The notes beneath the pieces are model-generated. The model was not told the origin of the DNA and did no database searches. It saw only the letters and a program-made list of their open reading frames with translations. Position numbers and translations under genes: made by a program. DNA of 64,000 nucleotides from a virus. Its lineage: Duplodnaviria > Caudoviricetes. The DNA lies in IMG/VR virus record IMGVR_UViG_3300030376_005300, positions 1 to 64,000 of that record, one strand, 5' to 3'. Shown here piece by piece: positions 7,909 through 49,300 of the stretch; within the stretch, counting starts at the first letter, position 1; each line of letters opens with the position of its first letter.

Positions 7909-8141
7909 CCATGAGCGACCATCAAGACAGCGAGCACTTTGCTTACGACAAGACATGGGAAGAGATTGAAACCATGCTGGACAGGGCGGAGCGCAAACAG
8001 AACTCACACTATTCTTCCATGTTGGACGGGCCGAAGAAGAAACGCATGTACCACATGAGGAACTACAAAGCATTGGAGGGCGTGGTCAAGGCTCTTCGTT
8101 GGGTGCTTGGAGATAAAGACATTGACCATCCACTGGAGTGA
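7905..8141 (+). CDS. small helical hypothetical protein
   Basis: ATGA-coupled; ALRWVLG motif. Confidence 0.7.
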   Translation: MTMSDHQDSEHFAYDKTWEEIETMLDRAERKQNSHYSSMLDGPKKKRMYHMRNYKALEGVVKALRWVLGDKDIDHPLE

Positions 8142-8146
8142 GAAAA

Positions 8147-8434
8147 ATGATTGACACAGACAAATACAAAGGACATACACCCGGCCCTTGGTGGATTGAG
8201 AATGGCTTTATCATGGGTAATGACCCCGAAGATTCTGTTCTTGTTTCCGAAACACTTGAGATTTTGGAAGGTAACGAAGCGGATGCACAACTCGCAACAG
8301 ACGCACCACTACTCCTCGCAGAAGTCAAGCAGTTGCGTGAAGCGATTGCTGACATTGTTAATGGGATAGGGCAAGTTGCTTCCGATGCCTTTTCACATAT
8401 GGTCATTGAGGAATTACGGAAGGTGATTGAATGA
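8147..8434 (+). CDS. MIDTDKY-family protein, paralog 1
   Basis: MIDTDKYKGHTPGPW...TDAPLLLAEVKQLRE. Confidence 0.8.
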   Translation: MIDTDKYKGHTPGPWWIENGFIMGNDPEDSVLVSETLEILEGNEADAQLATDAPLLLAEVKQLREAIADIVNGIGQVASDAFSHMVIEELRKVIE

Positions 8435-8751
8435 TTGACACAGACAAATACGAAGGACACATACAGGGTGAATGGCGAGATACCATACATGAGGGAGCAA
8501 AGGCTCATCACATAAATGCCGAAGATGTAAAAATCTGTACGGTGTTTCCAAATGAAGCAACGGCAAACTTAGTGACAGACGCACCACTTCTCTTAGCAGA
8601 AGTCAGGCGCTTGCGTGAAAGCGACGAACGGTGGCAGACTCATTGGGAGTTCATACGTGACTGGCTCGCCAATGTTGGCGATGGACACATCAGCGGCAAC
8701 GATGTGTCATCAGTAATGGACGCACTACGACCACGAGGTGAAGAAGAGTAA
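8431..8751 (+). CDS. MIDTDKY-family protein, paralog 2
   Basis: MIDTDKYEGHIQGEW...TDAPLLLAEVRRLRE. Confidence 0.8.
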   Translation: MIDTDKYEGHIQGEWRDTIHEGAKAHHINAEDVKICTVFPNEATANLVTDAPLLLAEVRRLRESDERWQTHWEFIRDWLANVGDGHISGNDVSSVMDALRPRGEEE

Positions 8752-9982: not shown

Positions 9983-12082
9983 ATGACGGAAACCATCGGC
10001 ACAGAAGTCTACAAGGACGGCTTCGGCGAACGCATCGGTCTCAAGTATCGCTACGACCCTGAAACCAACGAGGTACTCAAGAGCGCACTTGGCTTTCCCA
10101 AGTTCAAGTGGGACGCCGAGAAGAAGTTTTGGAGCATCCAAAGTTTCAAGGATGTCGTCAAGGAAGCGTGCGAAATACTTGATGAGATGGGTAAGTACGA
10201 CACCACGGTGATTCGTACCTACGCCGATGCCTTCTCCGAAAACCAGCGAAACAGTTCAGACTGCTGGACGCAGACGAAACGCACACGACTCTACCTGCAC
10301 TGGCCCTACATCGCTGACGCCATCAAGCGAGACAATGTACGCCTCGCCGTACGAAGCATCAGTGGACGCAAGTTCCACGCAGAACAAAAGTGCTGGTCCA
10401 TCCCGACCAGCCAAGCCATCACACTCTACGGTCTACTGGAAGACCTTTACCCGCCACTGGCGGAAGCCATCATGCAAGACGAAGGCGTGAAGGAGAATGT
10501 TCAGGAAAGCGTTCAGCGTGTTGAAATCAGCGGTGCCTCCGAACTCAACGAAAGCAAACTGGCTGAGATTGACAGCGCCCTCGCTGGCAAGTTCCCCGAA
10601 GGCCTCGGCCTCTACCCGTTCCAAAAGGTAGCGGTAGCCTTCGCAGAGATGAGCAACGGTCGCTGTCTCATTGGTGATGAGATGGGCATCGGTAAGACCA
10701 TCTCGGCCATCGGGTATGCGGCACTGCATCCCGAAGCACGACCGGCCATCGTGGTCTGCCCTGCGAATGTCAAGTTCAACTGGAAGAAGGAACTCAACAA
10801 GTGGTTGCCCTCTGAGCGGGTGCATGTCATCAACGCCGGTAACAAGAAAATGACAGCGGGCGAAGTCAAGGAACTGGCATCGGTCATGGGCTTCACAGCC
10901 AAAACGAAAGCAGAAGCGGTGGACTTCTTGACGGATAACAATGTTGATTTAAAAGCGGGCTTGCCCGAATCTGAGTTCATCATCATCAACTACGACTTGA
11001 TGGCGAAAATGCAAGATGAACTCATTGGGATTGCCCCACGCCTCGTCATCCTTGACGAGAGCCACTACATCAAGAACGCAGGGAGCAAGAACAAGCCGGT
11101 TCAGCGTACGATGGCCACGCTCAATGTGTGCAACTACACTTCAAAGGTACTCGCTCTATCAGGTACAGCCATCAGCAGTCGTCCGAAGGAGTTCTTCAAC
11201 ACATTGAACCTCATGCGACCTGACCAGTTCTCGTCCTTTTGGGACTTCGCTCAGCGATACTGCGACCCGTGGCATGACGGCTTCGGATGGAACTTTGAGG
11301 GAGCCAGTCACACAAAGGAACTCAACGAGCGGACCCGTGACCTCTGCATCCGCAGACTCAAGAGCGAGGTACTCCCCGAGTTACCACCCAAGACTCGCAC
11401 CTTCTTCCCTATTCAACTCAGCAAGAAAGACCGCAGTCCCTATGACTTCGCACAAGAAGAATGGGACAGGAAAATTGACGACTACTATCAAAACGGACAG
11501 CCGATGCCACCGGGTACCATGCTCAACATGATTTCTGACCTGCGCCACATCTGCGGGCAAATCAAAGTGGACTACGCCGCTGACTGGATTACACAGTACC
11601 GTGAGCAAACAGGGAAGCCCATCGTGGTCTTCACACATCACCGGGATGTTCTCAAGCGGCTCGCTGAGAAGTTCAAGGATGCACGCACCATCAACGGCGA
11701 CACGCCATCCAAGACTCGTCAGCAAATCGTTGACGACTTTCAAGCAGGGCACATCCCTGTGCTTATCTGTAACACCGTGGCGGCGAAGGAAGGCATCACG
11801 CTGACCAAAGCCGACACCGTTCTTTTCATTGAGCGTGAGTGGACACCCACTGACGAGGAACAGGCAGAGGACCGTGTGTACCGCATCGGTCAGGAGAGTC
11901 AGCATGTACATGCTGTGTACCTCTCCTGTGCTGGTACGATTGACGAACACTTTGACCGTGTGGTTGAGGACAAGCGGTCCGTTGTCAAAGCAGTGCTGGA
12001 TGGCGGGAATGTAGAACAGCGTAAAGGCTTGGTCAGTGAACTGGTCAAGCGATTGAAACAAGAGAGAGGTTGGAAGATATGA
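9983..12082 (+). CDS. SNF2-family ATPase with two N-terminal HARP-like domains (SMARCAL1-like annealing helicase)
   Basis: DEMGIGKT, DESH, LSGT and QAEDRVYRIGQ; HARP-like KWDAEKKFWSI and KFHAEQKCWSIP. Confidence 0.92.
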   Translation: MTETIGTEVYKDGFGERIGLKYRYDPETNEVLKSALGFPKFKWDAEKKFWSIQSFKDVVKEACEILDEMGKYDTTVIRTYADAFSENQRNSSDCWTQTKRTRLYLHWPYIADAIKRDNVRLAVRSISGRKFHAEQKCWSIPTSQAITLYGLLEDLYPPLAEAIMQDEGVKENVQESVQRVEISGASELNESKLAEIDSALAGKFPEGLGLYPFQKVAVAFAEMSNGRCLIGDEMGIGKTISAIGYAALHPEARPAIVVCPANVKFNWKKELNKWLPSERVHVINAGNKKMTAGEVKELASVMGFTAKTKAEAVDFLTDNNVDLKAGLPESEFIIINYDLMAKMQDELIGIAPRLVILDESHYIKNAGSKNKPVQRTMATLNVCNYTSKVLALSGTAISSRPKEFFNTLNLMRPDQFSSFWDFAQRYCDPWHDGFGWNFEGASHTKELNERTRDLCIRRLKSEVLPELPPKTRTFFPIQLSKKDRSPYDFAQEEWDRKIDDYYQNGQPMPPGTMLNMISDLRHICGQIKVDYAADWITQYREQTGKPIVVFTHHRDVLKRLAEKFKDARTINGDTPSKTRQQIVDDFQAGHIPVLICNTVAAKEGITLTKADTVLFIEREWTPTDEEQAEDRVYRIGQESQHVHAVYLSCAGTIDEHFDRVVEDKRSVVKAVLDGGNVEQRKGLVSELVKRLKQERGWKI

Positions 12083-12247: not shown

Positions 12248-12670
12248 ATGAGCGGAATGGGGATAGTCAAAGAATGCGAGGTCTGTGGTACTACATTCAC
12301 AACAAGAACGAACACGACAGCAGTGTACGAACGAAAGTGTGACGCTTGCTACAGCGAAAAGCGCACCAGCGAAAGCGTTCAGAAACTGAACCGCCAAGTG
12401 CAGAACAACATGATGTCGCTGGAGTCTCGTACCAAAGCGATGGAAAAGAAGTTCGGCAACATTGAACTCGTCATTGAGGTGGCGGCGAAGGACATCGTAA
12501 CTGATGCCATCACTAAAGCCTTAGAAGAAATCAAAGCCTCCACCTTGGAAGAAGCCAAGCAAATCATTGAGGCTCATGTGAAAGAGCAGACCGAGAAGTG
12601 GCAGATGCAACTACTCAAGATGAACAATCGCATTCGTACATTGACAAAGGAGTTGGGATTGGATGATTGA
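12248..12670 (+). CDS. Zn-finger plus coiled-coil protein
   Basis: CEVC...CDAC followed by heptad-rich region. Confidence 0.8.
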   Translation: MSGMGIVKECEVCGTTFTTRTNTTAVYERKCDACYSEKRTSESVQKLNRQVQNNMMSLESRTKAMEKKFGNIELVIEVAAKDIVTDAITKALEEIKASTLEEAKQIIEAHVKEQTEKWQMQLLKMNNRIRTLTKELGLDD

Positions 12671-12992
12671 CACAGACAAATACGAAGGACACAGAGAAGG
12701 GCCGTGGGAATACAATACCGATGATGATGGTTGGACACTTGCGGCTATCCGTGAACGGGACAACCCTGACCGAGATGAATTTATTGTATTGATGAGGAAG
12801 CCAAACGGCGACCCTAACCTCACATTGAACCCTGACCTCAAACTCTTAGCAGACGCACCACTTCTCCTTGAAGAAGTCAAGAAGTTGCGTGAAGAGAATC
12901 ACAATCGTTGGGTTGTGATTGGAGAGTTGAGGCGACAAGTTGAGGAATTGAAAGCAGACCTCAAGGACTGGATGGATGGTGAAGAAGCATGA
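12663..12992 (+). CDS. MIDTDKY-family protein, paralog 3
   Basis: MIDTDKYEGHREGPW...ADAPLLLEEVKKLRE. Confidence 0.8.
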   Translation: MIDTDKYEGHREGPWEYNTDDDGWTLAAIRERDNPDRDEFIVLMRKPNGDPNLTLNPDLKLLADAPLLLEEVKKLREENHNRWVVIGELRRQVEELKADLKDWMDGEEA

Positions 12993-13285: not shown

Positions 13286-13621
13286 ATGATTGACAAAATT
13301 GACTGGATGGAAACCTTTGTGCTGGGCGAGTCGTATCAGACTGCCTACGCAATTCTGATGAAAATAGATGAGTTGGTCCGTGGCTACAGTGCGGCGGACG
13401 GACAGCCCCCTTCGTGGGACTCACTCATCAAACGACAGGAGGCCTTCTCAAGAGATGTCGGTCACCTTGTCCTGCGTGCCGTGTACACCAACCTTGATGT
13501 CAGCACGATGGACGGCTCTCGCCCGAGTGGCACCTTCCCCAAAGGCAAAGGGCACCCCGGATTCGGGCACCTTCTCTACGGACTTCCAAAGATGCCGCCT
13601 GTCATGGATTCAGAGGAGTGA
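13286..13621 (+). CDS. hypothetical protein
   Basis: GGTGA RBS; converges on and overlaps the kinase gene by 20 bp. Confidence 0.7.
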   Translation: MIDKIDWMETFVLGESYQTAYAILMKIDELVRGYSAADGQPPSWDSLIKRQEAFSRDVGHLVLRAVYTNLDVSTMDGSRPSGTFPKGKGHPGFGHLLYGLPKMPPVMDSEE

Positions 13622-14426
13622 GGATGTTTTGCAGGTTCTGTTGCTCACCGTGTACAATAGCGTCAAGCATTTGCTCAGCAAGTGCGGGGTCGTTGTACTG
13701 GTCAAGGCCAGCGTACAGAGGCTGAGCAAACTCTCTCAATTCAGGGAGGTCTTGCTGAAAGCGACTGGCCTCTCGCATGAACTCGGGCGTGTAGAACGGC
13801 CTCCTTCGGGGGTAGTCAAACATGGGGTCAATCACCTTAACAGCACCAGCGGTACTGATTTCGGGTATGTCAACGCCGCCCTGCATCAGTGCCCAGTTCT
13901 CAGGCTTGGTGTCGCCGATGCCGAGCGCACCTGCAAGGGGGTACATCTCTCTCACTCGGTCACGCAATTCAACATGCGGACCCAACTCTTTCCAATTGAC
14001 ATCGGATTCAATCGGCGTACCCAATTCTTGGGTGTAGGTCACCGGCATGACATTGTGCCTGCCACCTGTCCCGTAGAAACTGAAAGGTGCCATGTAATCC
14101 TCGCTGTACGATAGCGAGGTCCCCTCTTCATTCAGGCGAGGGTGCATAGTGAAGAGTGGTAGTTGTGATTCAGGAATAGGTAAAGCATGCAACTGCTCTC
14201 CCACGAACATCTCAGGGTACATCTCTGCAAGTTGGCTCAGCACCATGGTGTCAGCCAACTTCTCACCCGTACCGTACTTGGTCGTATGACCGAGGCCGGA
14301 GTCTTCCGGCGGTGCATAAGCGGCACGGTAACTACCAATGCCCAACTGCTCATCCAAACGACGAGGGACGAACGGTGGCATGGACGCCTTCAACAGCATC
14401 CAAGCCATCTCAAGCGCCCTGCTCAT
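13602..14426 (-). CDS. protein kinase-like (ePK/atypical kinase fold) protein
   Basis: Gly-loop LGIGSYRAAY, beta3 Lys (TTK), catalytic loop GDTKPEN, Mg-binding KVIDP; GGTGAG RBS before ATG 14426. Confidence 0.75.
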   Translation of the reverse strand: MSRALEMAWMLLKASMPPFVPRRLDEQLGIGSYRAAYAPPEDSGLGHTTKYGTGEKLADTMVLSQLAEMYPEMFVGEQLHALPIPESQLPLFTMHPRLNEEGTSLSYSEDYMAPFSFYGTGGRHNVMPVTYTQELGTPIESDVNWKELGPHVELRDRVREMYPLAGALGIGDTKPENWALMQGGVDIPEISTAGAVKVIDPMFDYPRRRPFYTPEFMREASRFQQDLPELREFAQPLYAGLDQYNDPALAEQMLDAIVHGEQQNLQNILTPLNP

Positions 14427-14475
14427 ACTCACCGCACGCAGTAGCGTGTAATATCACTTTCCGAGGACTGGAGTC

Positions 14476-14507
14476 AAGTCCTTATAAACTGACAATAAAG
14501 GAAATGG
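14476..14507 (+). promoter_or_regulatory. early promoter motif copy 4 (consensus)
   Basis: AAGTCCTTATAAACTGACAATAAAGGAAATGG, identical to copy 5. Confidence 0.85.
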
Positions 14508-14559
14508 CTGGTTCTCGGAAACCACAAAAACAAATAGGAAACAACAGGAGGAACAAAAC

Positions 14560-16068
14560 ATGGAAGACATTGTATTGATAGCAAAAGTAACGCAAAGCAC
14601 ACCGAACATGGTGGAAGTAGAATACCCATCGGTTGCGGGGGTGAACTCTATTCGCCTACCCCGTACTATGATTGCGAGGTTTGAACGCATCTCCGGCGAC
14701 CGAGTTGCCGTACTGGTACGAACCGACGACAGCGACCGTGGTCAAGCCGTGTACCGAAACATCGGCGTGGACTACAAGCCACTGCACATCACTGACGAAC
14801 ACATGCAGATTGTCTCTGCCCTTGAATACGGCGAGCCAATCCCTGCCGACACGGTAGAAGAAGCAAACGACAACGCACCGTTGTGGACACAGCCCTCGGC
14901 ACAGCCATTGGTCACCGTCGTGAATCAAGACGGGACGGAGGAGTTCCACATGGCGGAGGAAGCCTTTGACAACATGCTGTTCTCAGGTGGTCGCAAGAAG
15001 TTGGAAAGCATCAACTGGGACTTTGACCCAGTTCGCAAGCCAGCCTTCGTCATGCACGAAAAGGCCGAAGCCGGTTCAACCGTGGCTCGTGTCAATGACA
15101 ACGCTGGTAAGCCTGTGGCCTACCACATCTTCAACCCGACCTATGCTAACAACGCTCGGCCTGCCGGTGCTTACCTTGGTACATTCAGTTCATCGTACTA
15201 CCCCATGCCCTACCGAAAGGGCTTCGGCCCTGTCCTTGACATGGCGGCGGAGAAAGGCTGGCCTGCTCAGGTGATTGCTTGGGACGAAGGCAAGCGAGCC
15301 GCCTGCTTCGTGGATGTCACTTCCAATGTTGACTGGGAAAAAGCCTCCTCAAAACTGGGACAGCGATGGCAAACCCGTGGCTTCACGGGTGAAGGCGACT
15401 ACCGTGTCGGCATCGCCATCTACAACAGTTTGGACGGCTCCTCATCCTTCAAGGTGCAAGCCGTTGCTGAGCGCCTCGTTTGTGCCAACGGCATGGTCAT
15501 AGGCCAGTCAGCGAACCTCATCAAACTCAAGCACACCGTTGGTACGCTGGGCAACTTTGACTTTGACAAAATGGCCAGCAAAATCATGGATGTCATTGAA
15601 GCGGCGGCACAGGAAATCATCGTGGCTGAGACCATGCGTGATGTCAAGGTTGACAGGAGCACCTTTGAGAAACTCATGACAATCTGTGAGCGCAAGGGAC
15701 TCATCACCAAGCCTGTCATCAAGCGGGACGACACCGGGAATGTCTCTGCCATCACCCGTGGCCACATGTGGCGACTCCTTGGACAAGGATGGACGAACCA
15801 CCAAGAACCATGGGTCGCTGTGGACAAAGAAGACACTGGCTCCCTGTACCATGTGTACAACATCCTGACCGGTGCCATCACCCACAAGCCAACTTGGACG
15901 GACGGTGAGACGACCCTCAAGGGTAGCACCCTCAATTTCAGCACCTTGACCGAGCGACTCGGCAAGGTCCACACTGTGCTTGGCGACATCACCAAGAAGG
16001 CAGTCAACGGCAAGTCCATTGACGACCAACTCGCCGATGTCCCCATGTTCAGCGCAATCCTACATTGA
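14560..16068 (+). CDS. DUF932-like domain protein
   Basis: IYNSLDGSSSF...ERLVCANGM signature; GSLYHVYN.LT. Confidence 0.8.
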   Translation: MEDIVLIAKVTQSTPNMVEVEYPSVAGVNSIRLPRTMIARFERISGDRVAVLVRTDDSDRGQAVYRNIGVDYKPLHITDEHMQIVSALEYGEPIPADTVEEANDNAPLWTQPSAQPLVTVVNQDGTEEFHMAEEAFDNMLFSGGRKKLESINWDFDPVRKPAFVMHEKAEAGSTVARVNDNAGKPVAYHIFNPTYANNARPAGAYLGTFSSSYYPMPYRKGFGPVLDMAAEKGWPAQVIAWDEGKRAACFVDVTSNVDWEKASSKLGQRWQTRGFTGEGDYRVGIAIYNSLDGSSSFKVQAVAERLVCANGMVIGQSANLIKLKHTVGTLGNFDFDKMASKIMDVIEAAAQEIIVAETMRDVKVDRSTFEKLMTICERKGLITKPVIKRDDTGNVSAITRGHMWRLLGQGWTNHQEPWVAVDKEDTGSLYHVYNILTGAITHKPTWTDGETTLKGSTLNFSTLTERLGKVHTVLGDITKKAVNGKSIDDQLADVPMFSAILH

Positions 16069-34961: not shown

Positions 34962-36461
34962 ATGAACGAAAACGAGAGCAATACAAGCGCAGTCGTCCAC
35001 AACATCCGGGCGGCAAAGAGAGCAGTCAGTACGGTCAAGACAACACTTGGCCCTATGGGCATGGACAAGATGATGGTTGACGGTGGCGGAAATGTCATCG
35101 TCACCAACGACGGGGCTACCATCCTACAAGAACTGGACATTAGCCACCCTGCGGCAAGGATGCTGGTTGAAGCGGCCAACACGCAAGAAAGCATGTGTTA
35201 CGACGGTACGACCAGCACGGTCGTGCTCGCAGGTGAATTACTTGGCAACAGTGAACTGCTGTTCAGCAAAGGACTGCACGCCAACATCATCTGCCGTGGC
35301 TACCGGAAGGCATCCAACTGGGCAGTTGACTACATCAAGAGTGAATTGACGCTGGACGCCGAAGAATTTCTCAGCGATATTGCTCGCACTTCAATTACGG
35401 GTAAATCGTTAGAATCCAGCATTTCTCATGTGAGCAATCTCTGCGTGGATGCCGTCAAAACAGCCGGTGGCGACTACGACCGCATTCGTGTCCTGTGTCA
35501 ACCCGGTGGTGGACTGGACGATTCGTCTTGTTTCTCCGGCGTGGTTCTACACAAGGAGTTCATGCTCCCCGCCATGCCACTCAAGCCCAACGGTAAGGCT
35601 CTACTCATCAATACGGGCCTCAGCGACATGAAGGGTGAAGAGAACATCCAACTCAGCCTGTCATCAGCCAACGAGTACCAGCAATACAAACGGCAATCGG
35701 GTCGCACTCAATGGGTGGACTGTGCAAATGCCATCATCAGCCTCTTGCCTGACGGCGGTGTAGTGTTCTGCCGTGACACGGTGCACGAAGTCGTGGCCGC
35801 TACGCTTGCGAAGGCCGGTATTGCGCTGGTACACCGCATTCCCGAGAGCGATATGACAGCCCTGTCTAAACTGCTGGGCACTTCAATCTCGCACAGCACG
35901 GACGACCTTATGGAACCTGTTGACTGTGATGCCGAGTGCAAACAAATCGGCGACATGAAGTACACTGTGGTCAAGGGCGAAGGCGAAGTCACCACGCTCA
36001 TCTTGCGCGGCGCTACCATGCAAACACTTGATGAGACTGAGCGTGGATTTGAGGATGCTCTCGGAGTCGTATGCCTTGCCTACAACACTAAGCGAATGGT
36101 TGCCGGTGGAGGCTCTGCCTACATCGGTGCGGCACTCTACCTACGCTCCAAGGCCGCTACGGTGGACGGTCGTGAACAGATGGCCATTGAAGCATTCGCT
36201 GACGCACTGGAGTCAATCCCTGCGACCATCGCAGAGAACGCAGGTCATGACCCACTGGACAGTATCCTGACACTCAGGAACGAGCACAAGAGCGGGCACA
36301 AGGACTACGGCCCTGACATTGACAACGGTGGTGCCTGTAGCATGACCGAGCGCAATGTGTACGAACCGTTTGACTTGGTGCGACAGGCTATCCTGTCAGC
36401 CAGCGAAGTGACCGTCAGCATCCTACGCATTGACGACATCATCGGCAAGCGCACTGAGTGA
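34962..36461 (+). CDS. ths: group II chaperonin (thermosome) subunit
   Basis: KTTLGPMGMDKM, TNDGATIL, YDGTTS, DETER..EDAL, VAGGG, IAENAG.D, ILRIDD. Confidence 0.95.
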   Translation: MNENESNTSAVVHNIRAAKRAVSTVKTTLGPMGMDKMMVDGGGNVIVTNDGATILQELDISHPAARMLVEAANTQESMCYDGTTSTVVLAGELLGNSELLFSKGLHANIICRGYRKASNWAVDYIKSELTLDAEEFLSDIARTSITGKSLESSISHVSNLCVDAVKTAGGDYDRIRVLCQPGGGLDDSSCFSGVVLHKEFMLPAMPLKPNGKALLINTGLSDMKGEENIQLSLSSANEYQQYKRQSGRTQWVDCANAIISLLPDGGVVFCRDTVHEVVAATLAKAGIALVHRIPESDMTALSKLLGTSISHSTDDLMEPVDCDAECKQIGDMKYTVVKGEGEVTTLILRGATMQTLDETERGFEDALGVVCLAYNTKRMVAGGGSAYIGAALYLRSKAATVDGREQMAIEAFADALESIPATIAENAGHDPLDSILTLRNEHKSGHKDYGPDIDNGGACSMTERNVYEPFDLVRQAILSASEVTVSILRIDDIIGKRTE

Positions 36462-38714: not shown

Positions 38715-40373
38715 TCATCCTCTCCTATTCCCTAAGAAATAACTGTGTACAGCACCAATTTTCAGGTGATTGTTGAGTGCTTCGGCTGAGTCAGACAGCA
38801 AAAAGAGTTCGTCGTTGTTGGCTACTTTGTGCACGCTGGCCGATTTGATGACAACAGTAGTGGCCCCAACGGAAGCGAGGTGAATATGTCCCAGTTTGTT
38901 TCCATTGGCGGTATAGACGGCTTGGTTGTCAGTGGCAAAAGCGGAAGACGCCGAGGTACCGTCTACGGTGAATGAAGTTGTCCCAATAGCATAGCCACCG
39001 CCGTTGTTGATGAGCACACCTGTACCTTGTAACTGTTGAGAGCCGTTGATAGTGTTCCGACGAGTCAATCCGATGGTGTAGCCCACGCCACGATTCATGT
39101 CCTCGCGCTCAGACAATTGCCAACTGACTCGTACCTTGAAGCCAAACGAAGTAGAGAACTCCTCTACGGCAAACTGCCTGTTACGCTCTTCGCTGGCGTC
39201 AGTGTTGCCGCTGACATCAATTTCTTGGAAGCGTTGCAATACATCTTCCAGCGTCACATCTACTGAGTTTACATGCAGTTCGCTGGTTTTGTCGTTGAGA
39301 TTGATGCGACTGCCGAGGACGATGTAACGCTCATTGTCTGTTCTCGTTTGATACGACACCATGTCGCCGGGGTGCATGTGGCTGGCGGCAGTGACATCCA
39401 CCAGTCTGCGACTGCCCGTGGCGTTCTTCGCCATCTTGAGCATACGCCTTCCTATCGTCTTAGCACTCGCCTTGGTCACTGCCGTAGGTGCGTGGATGCC
39501 ACCCGGTACCTCGTTAATACCGTTCTGCTGTCTGCCAAAGTCGTCAACTTGCACGGCGTTGTTTTGGTTGTTCGCTCTTGCTTTACCACGCACAACGACA
39601 CGGTTTGGTGTATTCTCACTTATCTCTGTTATAGAACCACCAAGAACTCTGTTCTCACCTACGAAGTGTTCACGCTCAATGTGATTCTGAGGGAAATAGC
39701 ACACATTTCCAAAGCGGTCGGATTTGGGACTGTAGCCGTCATGCTTGGACAGATAACGCAGTGCTGTGTACGCTTCTACGCCTAAGAAGTCTTGAGCCAA
39801 GAAAGTCAGGCTGGGCGTGCGAGCCCGCACACCGTTGATGCTACTGGTGTTCGCTTTGGCGACACGGTGAGCCAAATCAGAAGTCCGCAAGCCTACGCCA
39901 ACTTTCTGAGCAAAATGGATGGTTTTGTCGGTGAAGCCGATGGACTTGAGATTGCGACCCTTGAGGTTCTCCAGCCTGAACCGTGTACCTTTGGTAGCGT
40001 CTTGGATTTGCGATACGACGAGGGCTTGGTCGTTGTTCTCAGCGCCCACCACGAGCGCAGGTAGCGTGCTGGCAGTCGTCACCTTGTCCCCGTCAAGGAA
40101 CAACGCCCCTTCGTAGCGAACACTGTCCGATGGGTTGTGAAGCAAACGAATGGTATCTTCCTCTTCAATCAACTTGTAACGCTTCTCCGTGGTCGGCATA
40201 AAGTCCGATTGCGTAGGAGCGTTGACGACAAAGCCAGCGGCAGTCTTGGTGTACTCACCGTGTCGCACAGCGTTGTCAACGAACCGTGGTTTGCGGATAA
40301 CCTTCATGACGGAATCCTGAGCGGCATCAAAACGACCCGTTGAGAGATTCTTGCCCAATGCCATGTTGCTCAC
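38715..40373 (-). CDS. putative tail-tip/baseplate hub protein
   Basis: ALRYLS...DRFGNVCY, NRVVVRG, MHPGDMV...YIV hub-like pattern. Confidence 0.6.
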   Translation of the reverse strand: MSNMALGKNLSTGRFDAAQDSVMKVIRKPRFVDNAVRHGEYTKTAAGFVVNAPTQSDFMPTTEKRYKLIEEEDTIRLLHNPSDSVRYEGALFLDGDKVTTASTLPALVVGAENNDQALVVSQIQDATKGTRFRLENLKGRNLKSIGFTDKTIHFAQKVGVGLRTSDLAHRVAKANTSSINGVRARTPSLTFLAQDFLGVEAYTALRYLSKHDGYSPKSDRFGNVCYFPQNHIEREHFVGENRVLGGSITEISENTPNRVVVRGKARANNQNNAVQVDDFGRQQNGINEVPGGIHAPTAVTKASAKTIGRRMLKMAKNATGSRRLVDVTAASHMHPGDMVSYQTRTDNERYIVLGSRINLNDKTSELHVNSVDVTLEDVLQRFQEIDVSGNTDASEERNRQFAVEEFSTSFGFKVRVSWQLSEREDMNRGVGYTIGLTRRNTINGSQQLQGTGVLINNGGGYAIGTTSFTVDGTSASSAFATDNQAVYTANGNKLGHIHLASVGATTVVIKSASVHKVANNDELFLLSDSAEALNNHLKIGAVHSYFLGNRRG

Positions 40374-43300
40374 TCTCCGCTATGGTCTCCGGTGTTATAA
40401 CTTGCATCACCCTTGCTACCCTTTGGGTGCAGGGTCTGACTGAATCTCGGCTGAACTTCATAGTCCCCTTCCTCGTCGTCCGTAGAGCGACGGCTGGCGT
40501 CAGAACGGAAGTGTTCCAGCGTGTTCTCTGACATGACCATACGGGCCACTGGAGAGCGCACATCGGCCTTGTCGTAGCCACTGACCTCAACGCCCTGAAT
40601 CTTCGGCCCTTGGCTGTCAGGGACGGTCGTACTGCTCGTCGGGACCACGCTGTACACTGGGGCGTACGGAGGACTGCTGGGCGTACCTGTACGGGCCGAA
40701 GGTACATCGCTCGTGAACATGCCGTACTTTCCGCCGGAAGTAGCCCTGTAGAAGTTTGAGCCAGTCTGCGGACCACCTGTGTTGAGGAACGCTCGGAACA
40801 TTTGACTGTGCTTGTGGTCAAGACCGTGAGCAGGTCGGTAAACGAATTGAATTGTACTGTCGGCGTAGTTGATGTTTTCAAGCGCGGGGTCATGGTTGGC
40901 GTCTTGATATGGGTTGGACGAAGAAGACGCTCCTGCCTTGCCCCATCCTTTGACATCAAGGACACCAGCGTGCTTGCTCCATTCCATGATGTAAGTGCCA
41001 CCGAGTGCCCACATAGCGTGAGCGTTGGAGTGCTTGACCACGCCCGTCACAGGCTTGTCTGACCAGTTGAGAGCGGTCATGTCCAAATCCTTGAGCGTGC
41101 GACTACCAACATCGTACGCACCTCGGATGTTGGTGCGCTGTCCCACTTCCTTGTCGGTGTGAAGACTGTGAGCCTCTGTAGACATGACAACATACTCACG
41201 AGACACGCCGTCGTTAAGTTCAGCCAGTGTGTCCACATCCAGTCCGATACGAACATCGTTGCGAGACACGGGTTCTGCTCCTCTGTCGTCAGCGTTGACC
41301 GTTTCGGTCGCTTCGCCAACATGTGCAGATGACTTGAGCAGACCGTCGTCTGCGTTGAGGTCAACACGGTCACTGATACCGCGCTCAACCTCACCATCTT
41401 GCAGAGCAAGATTACTAGGTCTGACGAGCCCTTGTCCAAGGATTGGTTCGGCGGTGCTGTGACTGAGGACGAGGCCAGTAGCGTCGTGCTTTTCGCTGAC
41501 GGCCATGAGTAGACTTTCGTTGAACACTGTCGGCCAGCGTACACCGCGACCATCACCACGGTCACCAACTCTGAGGGCGCTCGCTGGGTTGAACCAGTCC
41601 ACTTTGCTCATATTGGATGCGTTGTTGTTGTCGCTGTTGGTGTTCCCGCTGTAGCGGTCGGTACCGTCTCCGCCAAACAAATCATGAGCGGCAGGGCGAT
41701 GCGTGACATTCGTATCGGCATAAGCGTCTTCGGGGTCCCAAGAAGGTCGCAGGCCGAATCCACGCACAGGGAAACGCCTGACATCTTCGCCACGGGTATT
41801 GCCCCACCAGTCAACCATGTAGTGGCGATGAGCCTTGGCTAACTCTTCTACACCTTGTCCAGCCTCGTCATTAGGGTACATGCGCGTCGTCGTAGACGCA
41901 TTTCTCAGTGTCCGTACAGGGCACCCGAACGGACCCGTCATACGACGACCGTCGCTGTAGCGCACTTGCCTGCCAATTTGGTCTTGCCCGAGGAGGCTGG
42001 AAACCTGTGTGATGCGTTCTAAAATGCCGATGTTCATAGCGACAATATCTTCATCGCTTTCTCCTGAATCGCTTCCGACATAATCCCATCCGTTTGTCTT
42101 GGAGTCGTGTTGGATAAGAGGTCCGTGATAGTAGCCAAGCATAGCATTGCTGTTGGCCACTTCAAGCCAGCCACGGACATATGGTGACCAGCGCGGACGG
42201 TTGTACAGTTGGCGCACGCCCATACGGTACCCGAAGCACCGGTTTCTGTCGTTGGGCAAAGACAGCGTAGCGACCCCTGTAGAATCCTGATAAGTCTCGC
42301 AGTCCATGCCAAAGGTATCACTGCCCCACCCAATCAGTGAGTGACCATAGGACTCCAGTCGGCTAACAGCACCGCCACCATGGCTACCCCCTCCCCAAAA
42401 GCCGAAGAAGTTGTATTTGTTTGAACCAAGTGTACCTCCTTGGTGACTGAGTGTGCCCGCACCGTCAAGTAAAGCATCTATTTCAGCGGCTGTGTATACT
42501 TTACCAGTATCACTCGCTTCGGCAACATACTCTGCTACTCGGACTTGGTTGATGTCTTTGTCAGTGTGTATGCTACAGGCGTACAATTTGGTTCCGTCCG
42601 AGTTCCAATCAAAGCCTGCAATTGAAGCATTGACAGTGCTTCCCCCGTCTATTCGTTGTCCGAGGACGGTTCCGATATTGACACTTGACACAAATGACTT
42701 AGTAGTCATATCAAAAGGAGTAGACAACGCAAACTCGGCTAACTTAGGACTGGAGCCAGCGTAATAGGAAATGAAAACCTTTGTACCGCCGGGTTTGAAT
42801 CGTATGCATGTCATTTGCTCTATTGTATCTCCATCGTCATCGGATACCGCCAACGACACCGTACTTGTTGAAATGGAAGAAGTGATGTCGTAATTTGTAC
42901 TAAGGGTGCTCACCTTTACATCAGCGCCAGCACTCGTCACTATGTACATCACGCTACCGTCATCGTTGAACGCTATTCCTTGAGTAGCACCAAAGGAAAC
43001 GATGTTCAGTGTAGTGGTTGCCGAAACAGAAGTAATGTCAAAAGGTGTAGAAAGAGTCTTCCTTTGTAAATAAGGAGAAGCCTGTCCTACGATATACACA
43101 GAATTGCCACCGTCACCGAAGCAATTTCCTCTTGGACTTTGGTTGTTGACTGAAAGTTCATCCGGCGTTGCTGTAAAATCGGGCAAAGAATTTTGGTCAA
43201 AGGTATAAGCCTTTAATTTCTCACCACTTCCGGGTTCTGTCGTAAGTATCATCTTGGTCGGAGAAATCATCAATTCAACCAATGGGTCGGTTCCAGCACT

Positions 43301-46300
43301 GGTCACAGCGTTACTGCTGAGTTCCGAAAGAGTGTACGAGTTGTCTACGGCAGGGGCTATCCACTCCATTCCCAACGCAAACGGTCCTTTGCTGGCAACA
43401 TAATTGAAATCGTGATAGTGAACTGTTTCAAAATGCTCAGGCACATGGTTGTACGGTTTTTGATTGACAGGTGCATCGGCCACACCCGTGTTAGCGTAAA
43501 ACCCTCTGCTATTGTCGTCGCTGTACCAAGTGAACGGACGACCGAGATTAGGATGCCACATGCAAAGGAACGCGTCAGCCGCCTGTAAGGAGTTCGTATC
43601 GCGACTTCCGTTCGCTAACTGTGGTAAGTTCCTTGTCATTGCACTACTTTCAGAACTCAAAAACAGTGAATCAGCATCGTCGTTATCATAAGGCGTAGTG
43701 AGCCGTAGGATAGTTCCTGCGCCTAAGTTGGCCCAAAACTCAGCAGTACCTGACACTCCCGAGAAGGTGTCACTCTCACCAAGCGTAGCGTGAGCAAGCG
43801 TCCCTGTACGGTTGGTGTAAGTAGCCGTGTAGCGTATACCGTTTTTGAAGTACACCAAGTTTTCACCGTAGTAGGGTTGCACAGGGAACAAGGCGTTGTC
43901 GTCAACGACGATGGTATTGGAATCGTTGTCACTGATAACGATGCAGTTTGGATTAAGGCTCCGTACTCGCTTATGTGGTTCGTAAATGTCAAGGAAACTT
44001 GTAGGGTAGCCAGCGAGTGTCAATTGTGCTCCGACAGAACCGTAGTTGGCTCTGCACAGTTGGTAATAGTTGTCAGGCTTGTGCCACTCAAGGTGCTTGA
44101 ACTTGTCAGCACTGGAAGAGGTAGCACCATCTTTGTGCAATATACCCCACCAAGGTATAGTCAATGTTCGGCCCGGAGTTGACGACTCAAACATACCGGG
44201 GCGATATGGCAGACTTCGCCGTGTAAGCGAAGGACTTGTACTTTCTTGTACACCCAGTGGATTGTACAAAGCGAGCGGTGCCAAGTTGGTAAACTGACTA
44301 CCAGCATCCGGCTCAATATCCAAAATGACTTCGTTGAGTATGACTTCGCATCCTCGTACATCGGCCATCATGGCCTCTGCAAGAATGAGAGCATAAGCCC
44401 CTCTCGTACTCATGTCCTTTTCAATGGCAATTACAGTGTTGACTTGTTGACCGGTAAGTTCTGTGACTTTAGTTCCACCTTCGCTTGGTGCTTTATTTTC
44501 AGTGCTGTGATTAAGATGGAAACCTTGTAGTTGTTGCTTGAACACATTCGGCTGAATGATAATTTGATATGCACCTACTTCAAGAGGGTCGGGGAAATGA
44601 TTGTTCAAGGTATAAGTGTTAGCCGCTTCAAGGACAAGCGTGTGACCTCCTTGCGAGTTGATGGTACCTGCGTTTGAACCTGCACTGGCGGCTATACCGT
44701 AACCCTCGTACTTTACCTTGGTCTCTGTCAGCAGTGTAAATCCTCCGCCGTGAATGTCGCTGGGACCAAACGGTGCTGATGGAGTAGAGAACCAAATAAG
44801 CGGACCTCTGCCATATCCGTTATTTTGCAATGTAGAGGTGGTAGATGTTCTCGTACCCTCCAACGGACCAATAAGCCCTGTGTCAACGGACTTATGATTG
44901 GAACTCTGACAAGCGGTGTTGAGGTCGTACAGTCGCTGGTAAGCAGGGTGAGCGTAGTGTCCGGGCATCAACGCCATGGTAGCGTTGACATGGTGATGTC
45001 CCATTCTTGGTATAGGCATTGGCGTCATTTTTGGTTTGGTCAGGTTGGTGTAGGCTGTGGATGTTGCCGCCATGGCACCAGTGTTCGCAGGTAAATTGCT
45101 GTAAAGCGTGAACCAATCAATGGATTTCATGTCAGGACTGGCACCGCTGTACTCTGCGTGGTCTCGTAAGCGCCTTGCCGCAAACAGCCTTGTTGAACCT
45201 GCGGGCATGTAGTACGATGGGACAACCTTGAGTCCAGTCTTTCCAGTCACGAATGACACAAAGTCGGGACTGTAGACGACACCTGTGAACTTGTTTGTAC
45301 CTATTCCTGTGTACGAAGCGATAACACCTTTATCGGTCGCCGGGTCGTAGACGCGTAAGAAATAACGACCTCCACTTTGTTCGTTTGAATCTGTCCAAGT
45401 AGCGGCTTCGGGCGTAGACCCGACTGTAATTTCAGTACCACTGTAACTGGTGTAGTTCAGTTCGTCAACATCGTACCGATGCGTCATAGACACGCCCATG
45501 CGAGTGACATGGAAGAAGAGACTTCGGTCGTGTGGCTCATAGGCAGAGTCAAGAGGAGCGTTATCGGTATGGTCAGCCCACCCCTCAGATGTAGACGCTG
45601 GGAACTTCAAACGACTGTGACTGGTATCAGACGAAATGTCGGACGCGTCTTGACTGAGATGCTCCCATCCGTTGTTCTCCCATGTTGGAAACAGTCTCGG
45701 TCCCGGCTGTAAGTTGCCGAACATTGACTGGAGTTGAGCACTCGCTTGAGCAGGGTGTTGCAAGCCTCCGCTACCTACAGTTTCGTTTTGATAAGCCTGC
45801 AAGCGGTCAAACCCTGACCTGACTACGATGTTGCCGGGAATTTCATCAGGATTAGGCAAGCGGATTTTGAGGTTTGGATTTACACCTGCACCTGCGAGAG
45901 CAGGAGCGAGGCCTTCAATGTCACGGTCACTGATATGTCGGAAGTCCATAATCACTGTTCCGAGCGGGCTACCACCCTCCAATCGGTGTTCTTGTCCAGT
46001 GTCGTCAATGACGCTGACGCTTTGAAATTGAATGTGTTCATTGGGAATCAACAGAGCGTTTCTAATTTCAAGCGGGTGCTGTTCTGCTAATTGAGGATGC
46101 GCCAACTCCTGTGCCTGAATGATAGGGAACATGGCGGCGTTGGTTGTCTCAAACGAAAACCGGTTGTTGCCAAGGATTTTTTCTCCAACTAATTTGTATT
46201 CACTGTTGTCCTTGCGCTTCGTCCACGGTATCATTCCGAGTCCACGAGCGTTGACAGCGGGCATGGTCACACTGCCGCCGTCCATGCGTTTCCACACGAC

Positions 46301-49300
46301 ATGCTCCGGCAAGAAATTACGAGCCGCACTGCGCTCGTTGTAGTAGTTGTACAGACCTTTGTAGGGCGTTGCGGCGATGTCCAAGTAGTCGTATTGGTCA
46401 CTAATTCCTATACATTCAACACCGTATGTACCCCTGTCCTCGTGGAAAGCCGAGTTCTTCACAACAGACTCGTCCCAAAACAAATCACCGGTTGGATAAT
46501 TACAAGCGTTTGCTCGTACCATGTCACCGCTTTGGATGGTGCGATGAAGTTGCGCGTCAGTAGGGGCACTGCCGACAGCAGGGTAGTCACTGCTGGTCGT
46601 AGGTAATGAAAAACCAGTGTGAACTTGCGCTTCTACATGCGGACCAGCAGTAGCCGTACCGACATACCGGTCTTTATTGTGTACCTTCCCAGTATCCCAA
46701 GCCACTGTACCAGCGTGTTCAATGTTACCCGTCTGCCCAACATGCAACCAGTCTCCCATACCACTTACACCATTTTTGTCAGCCTTCGCAATCAACGGTA
46801 GTTCGCTTTCATGAGTGATGGCTACGAGGTGACGACTGGCAAGACCGTCTACACAGTAGTCTTCGTAGAACGAAACAACAGCACTCTCTCCTGTGAGTTT
46901 ACTGGCGGGACTTGAGCCGCCAACGCAAGTCTCTGCGGCTCCGTAAGGGTTGAAACCTAAGAACGGATGCCACGCTCCTAAACCAGCAGGGTGTAAGTTG
47001 GCACCGATGTCATTGGTAGCCTCGTACGAGTTGAGATAAGAATATGCTTCACCATGCCAACCGACAGCGCCGACCGGCTTAGTTCTATCAACTGCATCTT
47101 GGAATCCACCAAAGTGAACCTGAGTCATGTGGTCTCTTCCCGTTCCCGACGCCGCGTTATTGAAACGATGAGTGCCAGCCTTGGCCCAAACATACGCTTT
47201 GAAACTTGTATCAGGAGTGATTGCACTGCGCGTTTGAGGATTCACAATGTTGGTGTTAGAAGTGATGGCGTTCTTTGCGAGCGTAAATGTGGTGTTTGGT
47301 GCCGATATACTCTGTGAAATGTAAGGTGCGAAGCCAGCGTTAGCACCGTCGCTGACTCTTAACCAGCCATAATCAGGGAGCGTTGTTGCTGTACTGGTGA
47401 CTCTCAAAGAAGCAGGTGTCCCGCTGTTTTCGGCTGTGTACTGGTTTACCTCTAACTCTACCCAACCGTAGCGGTCTTGCTTGTGAGCGTTCTGCATGCT
47501 GGGCATAAAGGTACCACCTATTGCCTTCAATGGGTCTTTACCGGGGAAGGTATTGATAGCGCCGCTGAGGACTGCGCCCAGTTCTTCGGCGTTCTGACAT
47601 CTTGTAGCATCTACGACGACAACATTATCATCCAAGATTTGGTTGTCGGGTGAGCCTCCGTAATAAGTGAGGTAAGCCTTAGCGAGAAGACCAGCAGGGC
47701 GGAAAGCACTTGTGTTGTGCTTCGCACCGCTACCAGTTGACAAGAACGCACTCGCCGCATGGTTCTTGGGGTTCTTCCGTACATGGTCGTCAAGGAAGTG
47801 ACCGCCGGGATGGTACCCTCCGTCCATGTGCCAAACGACAGAAGACTTCCTTGTAGTCGCATGACTCCCACTCCCAACAGCGTTTCCGCTAATGTCGTCA
47901 AAGACATGACTGAACGGGTGATAGTTTTTCGGAAGGCCAGTTATGGCACCTGCTGTACCTTCGTAGAAAAAGGCCATGGATTTAGTTTGCGAGTATGTGC
48001 GAGAACTGGAAGCGTTGACATTTGGGAAACCCTTTGTCGGTTGCCAATTCATAACATAGTTGAAGCCTTGAACATTGTTCTTTTGGAAGAAAGTAGTCAT
48101 AGGTAAATACGCTAACGCTCCGCCTCTGTTGAAACCACTGTGCTCTGTAGTGTCCCCGTTGGCCAATTGATTTGGCAAAAATGAATCTTTGGCAGTGTTC
48201 CCTCCAAGGTAAATTGGTACAGCACTGTAACCGTTACCAGCAGTGACTATGTTTGCACCTTGCGGTTCGGTCGTTGCTGTATTATGCGGAAAGGCCTGCC
48301 CCGGTCCGAAAATCATGTAAGTAGTCGCATCGCCTGTACTACCGTCATGCCTGTAACGAGCATGGGCATGGGCGAAACGCAAGATGACAGGGCTCGGGAC
48401 ATTAGCATGAACAGAATTACTACCATCGGTGTAATCCAAGCCTGTCACCTTGCTGTTAGCACCTTTGGTCATATCAAACGGTAGTATGGCATCTTGATTG
48501 AAAAACGGAGGATGGTTTTGTCCTTTGTGCTGGTCAAGGTACACTGTTCCGGGGAACATGGCCATCATGGCATTGGTATCAAGCAGTGCGAATGACCCAG
48601 CGATTTCTCCTACATTTTGGAAACCAGCAGAGCCAGTGGGTCCATTGGCGTAAGGATGTGTGTAGAAATCAGAATAATCGTTCTGTGTACCGTCATTGAT
48701 GTCCGTTACCACGCCGCTAAAACCGCCACCGAAATAGAGTGGGACATAATGGTCAGGACTGTCTCGTCCGCCTCGGAAATACAGGAATGGGCTGGAGTTT
48801 TTACTACCGGCTATTCTTACACCATCTATTTGAGAAAAGTCGCGATAAGTAGAGTTCCGCTTCCAAAGTATGTCTCCGCCTGCTGGGTTAGGGAACGCTA
48901 CAGGATTGGTGCTCTTACTTTCAATCGTGACTACTTCTTCGGGGTCGGCTACACCTGCCTTGCTCCTCACTCTTGCCCAAGCGTTACTGCTGTGCCAAAC
49001 AATAAACGGCTCGCCCCAACTGTTAGCAGTATCAGACGCAGGCTTACCAAGCAACGCCCACGATTCGTTTGTGGCTACACTGATGTCAGGGTCAGAGAAG
49101 GAGTGTACTTCAACACAAGGAGAGTCCACTCGTGGAATGATGTGGTCACCTGCAATGTCGGTGAAATTCTCCCCTCTCAGATTTTTCTGCCAGTCAATGA
49201 TGTCTACTGTGTTATTCTGACTATCAACAAGTACAGGGGTCGCTGTATTTGCATTGGTCCCTCTGTATTTTGTACTAATATGCAAGACTGTCTTTGGTAT

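Follow-up and report, generated by a model that had tools for sequence, protein, structure and literature searches.

Two phage systems are the nearest described counterparts of the locus analysed here. The first is gp0.7 of bacteriophage T7, a Ser/Thr kinase (PF27024) that, like the candidate kinase of our locus, is small and virus-encoded. The second is found in phage T4, where various internal proteins reach the scaffolding core by means of a capsid-targeting sequence (CTS; PMC3012670). A third point of reference is provided by atypical minimal bacterial kinases of the protein-kinase-like (PKL) superfamily, namely HipA/HipT, CtkA, CotH and MavQ, with which our protein has a structural likeness and no sequence-profile match.

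Few viruses of the surface ocean are as abundant as the magroviruses, and because their hosts are uncultured, the ways in which they take over the cell are almost wholly obscure. The magroviruses of Marine Group II archaea were described by Philosof et al. (PMC5434244); neither that account nor a second magrovirus paper mentions a kinase, and a literature search for a kinase encoded by an archaeal virus found none.

The virus record considered here is linear, 100,986 bp long and rated 98% complete, and the window, by which we mean the whole stretch of DNA that was analysed, is its left 64 kb. Plus-strand genes of the window specify a DNA polymerase of family B, an RFC-like clamp loader, a chaperonin (34962-36461), an SNF2 helicase and a DUF932 protein. 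Tail and head genes, including those for the terminase, portal, head-maturation protease and MCP, occupy the minus strand in the remainder of the genome. One uninterrupted reading frame of 5489 aa, at positions 40370-56839 (minus strand) of the window, lies inside the tail/structural arm. The closest DNA polymerases are those of haloarchaeal tailed viruses (~25% identity), and the size and linearity of the genome, its gene set, the SNF2 gene and the marine sources of its homologues all fit the magroviruses of Philosof et al.

A lone minus-strand gene among plus-strand genes

The gene under study lies on the minus strand at 13602-14426 (ATG at 14426, stop codon at 13602-13604) and encodes a protein of 274 aa. 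It appears in the list of open reading frames as 13602..14432 (minus strand), with a GTG start that raises all residue numbers by two relative to those used here; since homologues begin MSxAFExAW, the ATG at 14426 is the supported start. By codon usage the open reading frame scored +0.286 per codon, like the real genes of this genome, against -0.083 for the plus-strand frame that overlaps it, and every other minus-strand frame of at least 80 aa between 1 and 36.8 kb scored below its overlapping plus-strand gene. On these scores it is the only credible minus-strand gene in the first 36.8 kb, as the initial annotation had supposed for the first 36 kb.

We found 22 close relatives of the protein, at 46-91% identity, in marine metagenomes, and an exhaustive search added further family members at ~29-37% identity. 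Searches of 50,697 phage records by tblastn and megablast gave no match to the gene. Most likely the family is confined to one clade of tailed, magrovirus-like viruses that infect marine archaea. Two other proteins met in the searches deserve mention. P0031, a 1270-aa ankyrin-repeat protein from the search of representatives, was rejected as a homologue because its match was a spurious one to repeats. P0032, a metagenomic protein of 177 aa, follows the kinase-like N-lobe to about residue 115 and then continues into an unrelated C-terminus with a weak match to a transglutaminase core (E 0.0016), for which a chimeric origin or an error of assembly may account.

The setting of the gene is conserved along with the gene itself. 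Wherever flanking DNA of a relative was available, down to 29% identity, no gene but the kinase-like one lay on the opposite strand. In the window, its 3' end overlaps by 20 bp (13602-13621) that of a convergent gene of ~110 aa (13286-13621, plus strand), and the same arrangement is present in L001-L007 and in the P0026 contigs, where the ~110-aa proteins are homologous (motif FPKxxGxPGxxH), the 3' overlap measures 20-60 bp and the ~110-aa gene follows the SNF2-family helicase gene. The latter, identified by Pfam and PHROG matches and present in relatives, is the conserved landmark on the upstream side of the module (9983-12082, plus strand). On its other side, in the closer relatives, the kinase-like gene faces with its 5' end a divergent gene of the DUF932 family (14560-16068, plus strand; Pfam PF06067, E 3e-11; a neighbour in L001-L004). 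Transcription of the convergent plus-strand operon across the overlapping 3' end would probably keep the kinase-like gene off for as long as that operon is active.

A homologue of the ~110-aa protein, 72% identical, is also encoded in two cellular contigs from archaea, one of 129 kb (L011:8001-8438) and one of 981 kb (L012:8001-8438). Alba, ParA/Mrp and a RIO-type kinase are encoded there too, and no other gene of the virus lies nearby, which suggests that the ~110-aa gene has been exchanged between host and virus.

A predicted protein-kinase-like fold with a conserved active site

The initial annotation had assigned a kinase fold to the protein from its motifs. Modelling with AlphaFold2 gave a pLDDT of 69 from 22 sequences and of 79 from 29 sequences (pTM 0.78, five models in agreement); residues 1-45, in the N-lobe, were uncertain in both models. 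When either model was searched against structural representatives, the resulting list consisted almost wholly of protein-kinase-like folds. The best matches included HipA, CotH, CtkA and HipT, with the lipid kinases MavQ and PI4K also among the top, and lower down stood actin-fragmin kinase, RIO2, PI4KII, AceK, macrolide/aminoglycoside phosphotransferases and many eukaryotic kinases. Kinases likewise dominated the Foldseek lists against PDB and BFVD, at weak E-values: the best, to AceK, was 9e-4 (model 1), and no match reached 1e-3 with model 2. The nearest neighbours by protein language model were the Phage_T7_kinase, Kinase-PolyVal and YrbL clusters, all of them kinase-like, with scores of 0.92-0.94.

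In searches with sequence profiles, no curated family was matched. Neither the protein nor its family members matched a kinase family in Pfam at E-values up to 10, nor was there a kinase family match in NCBIfam, PHROGs or PADLOC, and family profiles run against PDB sequences gave non-significant matches only (dextransucrase, E 0.33; YtaA, E 0.5).

The model has the bilobal architecture of the PKL superfamily, with an N-lobe sheet carrying αC and a helical C-lobe, and the residues expected of an active site fall in their proper places. We assessed conservation in an alignment of 29 sequences that reaches down to 29% identity. D172, N177 and D200 are invariant in it, and conservation reaches at least 90% at G29, G31, R34, T49, K50, K174 and W178, and likewise at P201. 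The candidate glycine-rich loop, L28-GIGSYRAAY37 (14316-14345, minus strand, as are the coordinates that follow), contains the conserved G29, G31 and R34 and is modelled at low confidence; the third glycine of the GxGxxG pattern is replaced by Arg. K50 (14277-14279), the candidate β3 ATP-binding lysine, sits in model strand 47-52. The candidate catalytic loop, D172-T-K-P-E-N177 (13896-13913), comes after helix 148-167, as it does in kinases, so that the catalytic Asp and Asn of the superfamily, five residues apart after αE, are matched by D172 and N177. In K197-V-I-D200-P201 (13824-13838), which directly follows strand 196-198, D200 would be the metal-binding Asp found after β8 (the equivalent of DFG). 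No conserved αC glutamate was evident in distant family members. Between the N-terminus and the fold lies a Pro-rich linker, SMPPFVPR (residues 15-22, 14361-14384), which is near-invariant in close homologues and has low pLDDT. The kinase motifs listed in the initial annotation are thus all present, in the order given there, and they coincide with the best-conserved columns of the alignment.

Together, the models and the alignment support membership of the PKL superfamily at the level of fold. The protein is best explained as the founding member of a family of putative protein-kinase-like phosphotransferases of ~270 aa that is an orphan by sequence. With K50, D172-x-K-x-x-N177 and D200 in canonical order, the enzyme is most likely active, and we are reasonably confident in the broader reading of the gene as encoding a real, conserved, tag-bearing PKL-fold enzyme with probable activity.

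A divergent transcription unit with a candidate promoter of its own

The spacer between the kinase-like gene and its divergent neighbour is 133 bp long. As the initial annotation had noted, the gene is divergent from copy 4 of a promoter-like repeat (TCCTTATAAACTGACAATAAAGGAAATGG, 14471-14521, plus strand), one of five copies in the left arm, all on the plus strand, with the core TCCTTATAAAC...GGAAATGG. On the minus strand, the same spacer contains a TATA-like box, GGAAAGTGATATTAC (14448-14462), which is centred ~26 nt upstream of the ATG and may serve as the promoter. The box is conserved in the window, in L001-L003 and in L004-L005; in a genome-wide search that allowed up to 3 mismatches it was unique, with no second copy. 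Archaeal promoters have their TATA box at such a spacing from the transcription start, and because the centre of the TATA-like core is ~26 nt from the ATG, the mRNA is probably leaderless. These features support the view that the gene, antisense to the replication/early arm and divergent from the plus-strand promoter copy, forms a transcription unit of its own, and agree with the earlier proposal that it is not part of the early transcripts. We found no motif in common between its upstream region and those of the other tagged or minus-strand genes (see below); late expression, for which the orientation of the gene speaks, therefore finds no sequence support there.

Between the TATA-like box and the start codon, the palindrome CACGC-AGTA-GCGTG reported earlier is indeed present, as an inverted repeat of the form CACGC-N4-GCGTG (14435-14448). 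Inverted repeats of different sequence occupy the same place in L002, L004 and L006, making 5-7 bp repeats in four lineages (CACGC/GCGTG, CGCAG/CTGCG, TACGCAT/ATGCGTA and ATAGC/GCTAT). As we roughly estimate the chance of a perfect repeat in so short a stretch at ~7% per lineage, its recurrence in four of them points to a function, and the repeat could be an operator or a hairpin.

One element of the initial annotation did not hold up. The GGTGAG taken for a ribosome-binding site (RBS), at 14428-14433, leaves only 1 nt between itself and the ATG, lacks conservation in relatives and is unlike the GGAGG found 6-8 nt upstream of the start of plus-strand genes; it is not credible in that role. Many plus-strand genes between 1 and 32 kb (repeat families D1, D2, D4 and D8) have a very uniform RBS context, GAGGAGGAAT(G/A)AACATG, which the kinase-like gene lacks. 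In small plus-strand genes, unrelated cores are accompanied by two shared stretches of conserved DNA (repeat families D5-D7), one a start block and the other a DAPLLLxEVxxLRE block; in the window the blocks lie at 8273-8341, 8551-8619 and 12825-12893, and at 8141-8184, 8425-8468 and 12657-12700.

A portable tag on otherwise unrelated proteins

The protein begins with a tag, MSRALEMAWMLLKA (14385-14426, minus strand), whose core AWMLLK is encoded at 14388-14405. AlphaFold2 modelled the tag, with low confidence, as an amphipathic helix. It is conserved in all full-length family members as strongly as the catalytic residues are, and within the 64-kb window the AWxLLK motif is unique to the kinase-like gene. 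We scanned the whole genome, together with 30 codon-shuffled genomes, for [AS]-W-x(1-2)-h-h-K within the first 20 residues of open reading frames of at least 60 aa. The pattern occurred in 13 frames of the genome, 12 of them credible (the other is an internal-start artefact), against 0-1 per shuffle in the 30 shuffled genomes. All credible carriers are on the minus strand, which encodes the terminase, portal, protease and MCP; they include the kinase-like gene, two small ones immediately downstream of that for the MCP and eight genes at 92-100.7 kb, upstream of that for the terminase. Apart from one pair of paralogues, the carriers are unrelated to each other beyond the tag, and no known domains were found in the tagged proteins. 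The expectation that the leader would recur on otherwise unrelated proteins was therefore borne out by about 11 others in the same genome, and the leader is kept in relatives: in L014-L016, N-terminal tags persist on several genes even though the tagged 446-aa protein is only 41% identical. Because the codons of the tag vary synonymously, conservation is at the level of the peptide.

Two adjacent small tagged genes (G000 66792-66980 and 67012-67293, minus strand) have identical upstream sequence and the leader MSAF[SN]ESWIFLK in common and diverge completely thereafter, an arrangement that looks like a duplication of an RBS plus tag.

The tag is not confined to N-termini. The 486-aa protein encoded at G000 85970-87430 (minus strand) contains the motif twice internally, as EPMxDAWSSLhK, and the 446-aa protein (G000 95668-97008, minus strand) has the tag at its N-terminus and again at its extreme C-terminus (GEPMNMAWRLLKKP); both the internal and the C-terminal placements are conserved in L014-L016. 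Such copies are more readily understood in a docking motif than in a signal restricted to the N-terminus, and to judge from the sequences the tag is a portable amphipathic docking peptide and not a classical signal peptide. Most likely the first 14 residues would act as a portable tag that docks all of the tagged proteins to one common receptor.

The leading candidate for that receptor, put forward tentatively and at somewhat less than an even chance, is the interior of the procapsid, which would make the tagged proteins virion cargo; in that case the head-maturation protease might possibly clip the tag after its Lys. We regard as about equally likely, and likewise short of even, the alternative that the tagged proteins dock elsewhere, be it on the chaperonin that the virus encodes, on a complex of the host or on a membrane. 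On that view the kinase, made de novo, would act inside the infected cell, and it is to this reading as a whole that our estimate applies. The internal and C-terminal copies of the tag sit more easily with another hub of this kind, as does the tag consensus, h-[ED]-x-A-W-x-h-h-K, in which the residue after Lys varies and is not uniformly small. The AW tag is moreover absent from the MCP, portal and protease, so that the core head proteins are untagged; the virus does encode a chaperonin; and the tagged proteins, of which one (399 aa) has a possible TM segment, are acidic to neutral rather than basic and do not resemble DNA-binding proteins. Loading into the capsid, on the other hand, is favoured by the position of the tagged genes, all of which are on the morphogenesis strand and beside or inside the head module, and by the match to the cargo logic of the T4 CTS, that is, a short leader on unrelated proteins combined with an encoded head protease. 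It is also favoured by h-h-K|A sites near the N-termini of the MCP (SELLK|ADAP) and the protease.

Substrate class and activity

The class of substrate is not readable from the fold alone, as lipid (MavQ, PI4K) and small-molecule (Mph, APH) kinases are among the top structural matches. We nevertheless lean towards proteins as the substrate, since the loop D-T-K-P-E-N is of the Ser/Thr protein-kinase form. A PKL-fold kinase that instead acts on a small molecule, a lipid or a nucleic acid (candidate targets being a nucleotide, a cofactor, a sugar, a membrane lipid or an RNA/DNA end) strikes us as rather unlikely. Its structural neighbours do include MavQ, PI4KII, macrolide/aminoglycoside phosphotransferases, YihE, the Ark1 RNA kinase and the amicoumacin kinase, and neither activation-segment nor substrate-groove motifs could be confirmed. 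However, D-T-K-P-E-N-W copies the signature of Ser/Thr protein kinases down to the Lys two residues after the Asp, and HipA, CotH, CtkA and HipT, together with the T7 kinase and Kinase-PolyVal neighbours, are protein kinases.

The presence of HipA and HipT among the top structural matches also raises the prospect of a growth-arresting toxin kinase, with the ~110-aa neighbour as its regulator or antidote; the neighbour is of HipS-like size and is paired with the kinase-like gene in every relative examined. This we judge to be very unlikely. A HipA/HipT system should match HipA_C and share its operon with a HipB/HipS antitoxin transcribed along with it, but Pfam gave no match to the HipA_C profile and the two genes are convergent, not co-transcribed. 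In addition, the 72%-identical homologue of the ~110-aa protein stands in an archaeal cellular contig without a kinase-like gene of this family nearby; such a lone copy indicates that the ~110-aa protein can function without the kinase and argues against an obligate toxin-antidote pair.

Least probable of all is the reading on which the protein has kept a kinase-like fold without catalysis, whether as a pseudokinase or in a purely structural or adaptor role, for the poorly modelled N-lobe, the Arg in place of the third glycine and the lack of a clearly conserved αC Glu are outweighed by the (near-)invariance, down to 29% identity, of the catalytic Asp and Asn, the metal Asp and the β3 Lys, one or another of which pseudokinases usually lose.

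Discussion

At its most far-reaching, our interpretation would be that a Lys-terminated capsid-loading address (h-E-x-AW-x-h-h-K) packs about a dozen unrelated proteins into the head, to be injected along with the DNA. Among them would be an active Ser/Thr-type protein kinase, encoded antisense in the early arm, that phosphorylates proteins of the Poseidoniales host at entry. Taken as a whole we hold this to be unlikely; if it were true, no delivery system for protein cargo and no protein kinase would have been described for an archaeal virus before. Being conserved and probably active, the kinase offers an expressible enzyme for studying how magroviruses manipulate their hosts, and with this family the kinase-like superfamily gains a branch that is an orphan by sequence. 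The tag, for its part, links the kinase to about ten orphan proteins and provides a handle on whether tailed archaeal viruses deliver cargo as T4 does.

Similarity to T7 gp0.7 is suggestive and concentrated in a few patterns. The two proteins have in common the N-lobe pattern LG-x-G-x-[FY]-x-AAY-x-x-P ... K-x-G and an [IT]-D-P metal site; the candidate Gly-loop aligns with LGNGHFSAAY of gp0.7. The top language-model cluster (score 0.94) carries PF27024 on 11% of its members. Nevertheless, hmmscan did not match PF27024 to the protein, and hhalign gave a probability of 16%, over 40 N-lobe columns only, when the family alignment was compared with a 16-sequence T7-kinase alignment; taking the comparisons with gp0.7 alone and with its family profile together, the range was 10-16%. 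The loop of gp0.7 is D-M-H-S-G-N where ours is D-T-K-P-E-N, and gp0.7 is the product of an early, co-directional gene with no shared leader, whereas our gene is antisense and tagged. As a separate observation, hhalign placed residues 56-62 of gp0.7 (L013), DWWTTLK, opposite MAWMLLK of the tag, just upstream of the Gly-loop; this pairing may be coincidence, or the helix may also have a role in the N-lobe.

Compared with the bacterial PKL kinases, our candidate kinase differs in being encoded by an archaeal virus and in having an N-terminal tag. Its loop, DTKPEN, is as in eukaryote-like kinases and not of the HipA type.

The T4 CTS, as found on the internal proteins IPI-III and Alt, is likewise a short conserved N-terminal peptide on unrelated proteins, and T4 and this virus alike encode a head-maturation protease. 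We compared the tag with the consensus of the T4 CTS and looked in it for a cleavage site of the gp21 type (L/I-x-E); neither was matched, and the tag ends in Lys. The T4 CTS is Glu-terminated and of unrelated sequence, whereas AWxLLK is Lys-terminated, occurs internally and at a C-terminus as well, and belongs to a virus of archaea. The T4 internal proteins are basic, and the tagged proteins here are not. The analogy is thus weakened by the sequence of the tag, its Lys end and the variable residues that follow, the internal and C-terminal copies, the non-basic cargo and the untagged head proteins. If the two are analogous, ours would be an independent tag.

Viral kinases and leader-tagged phage cargo are both of kinds already known, and the locus is not a categorically new system. 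What is new, and in part supported by the evidence above, is a probably active kinase-like enzyme family of archaeal viruses, encoded by a conserved stand-alone antisense unit and bearing a genome-wide tag.
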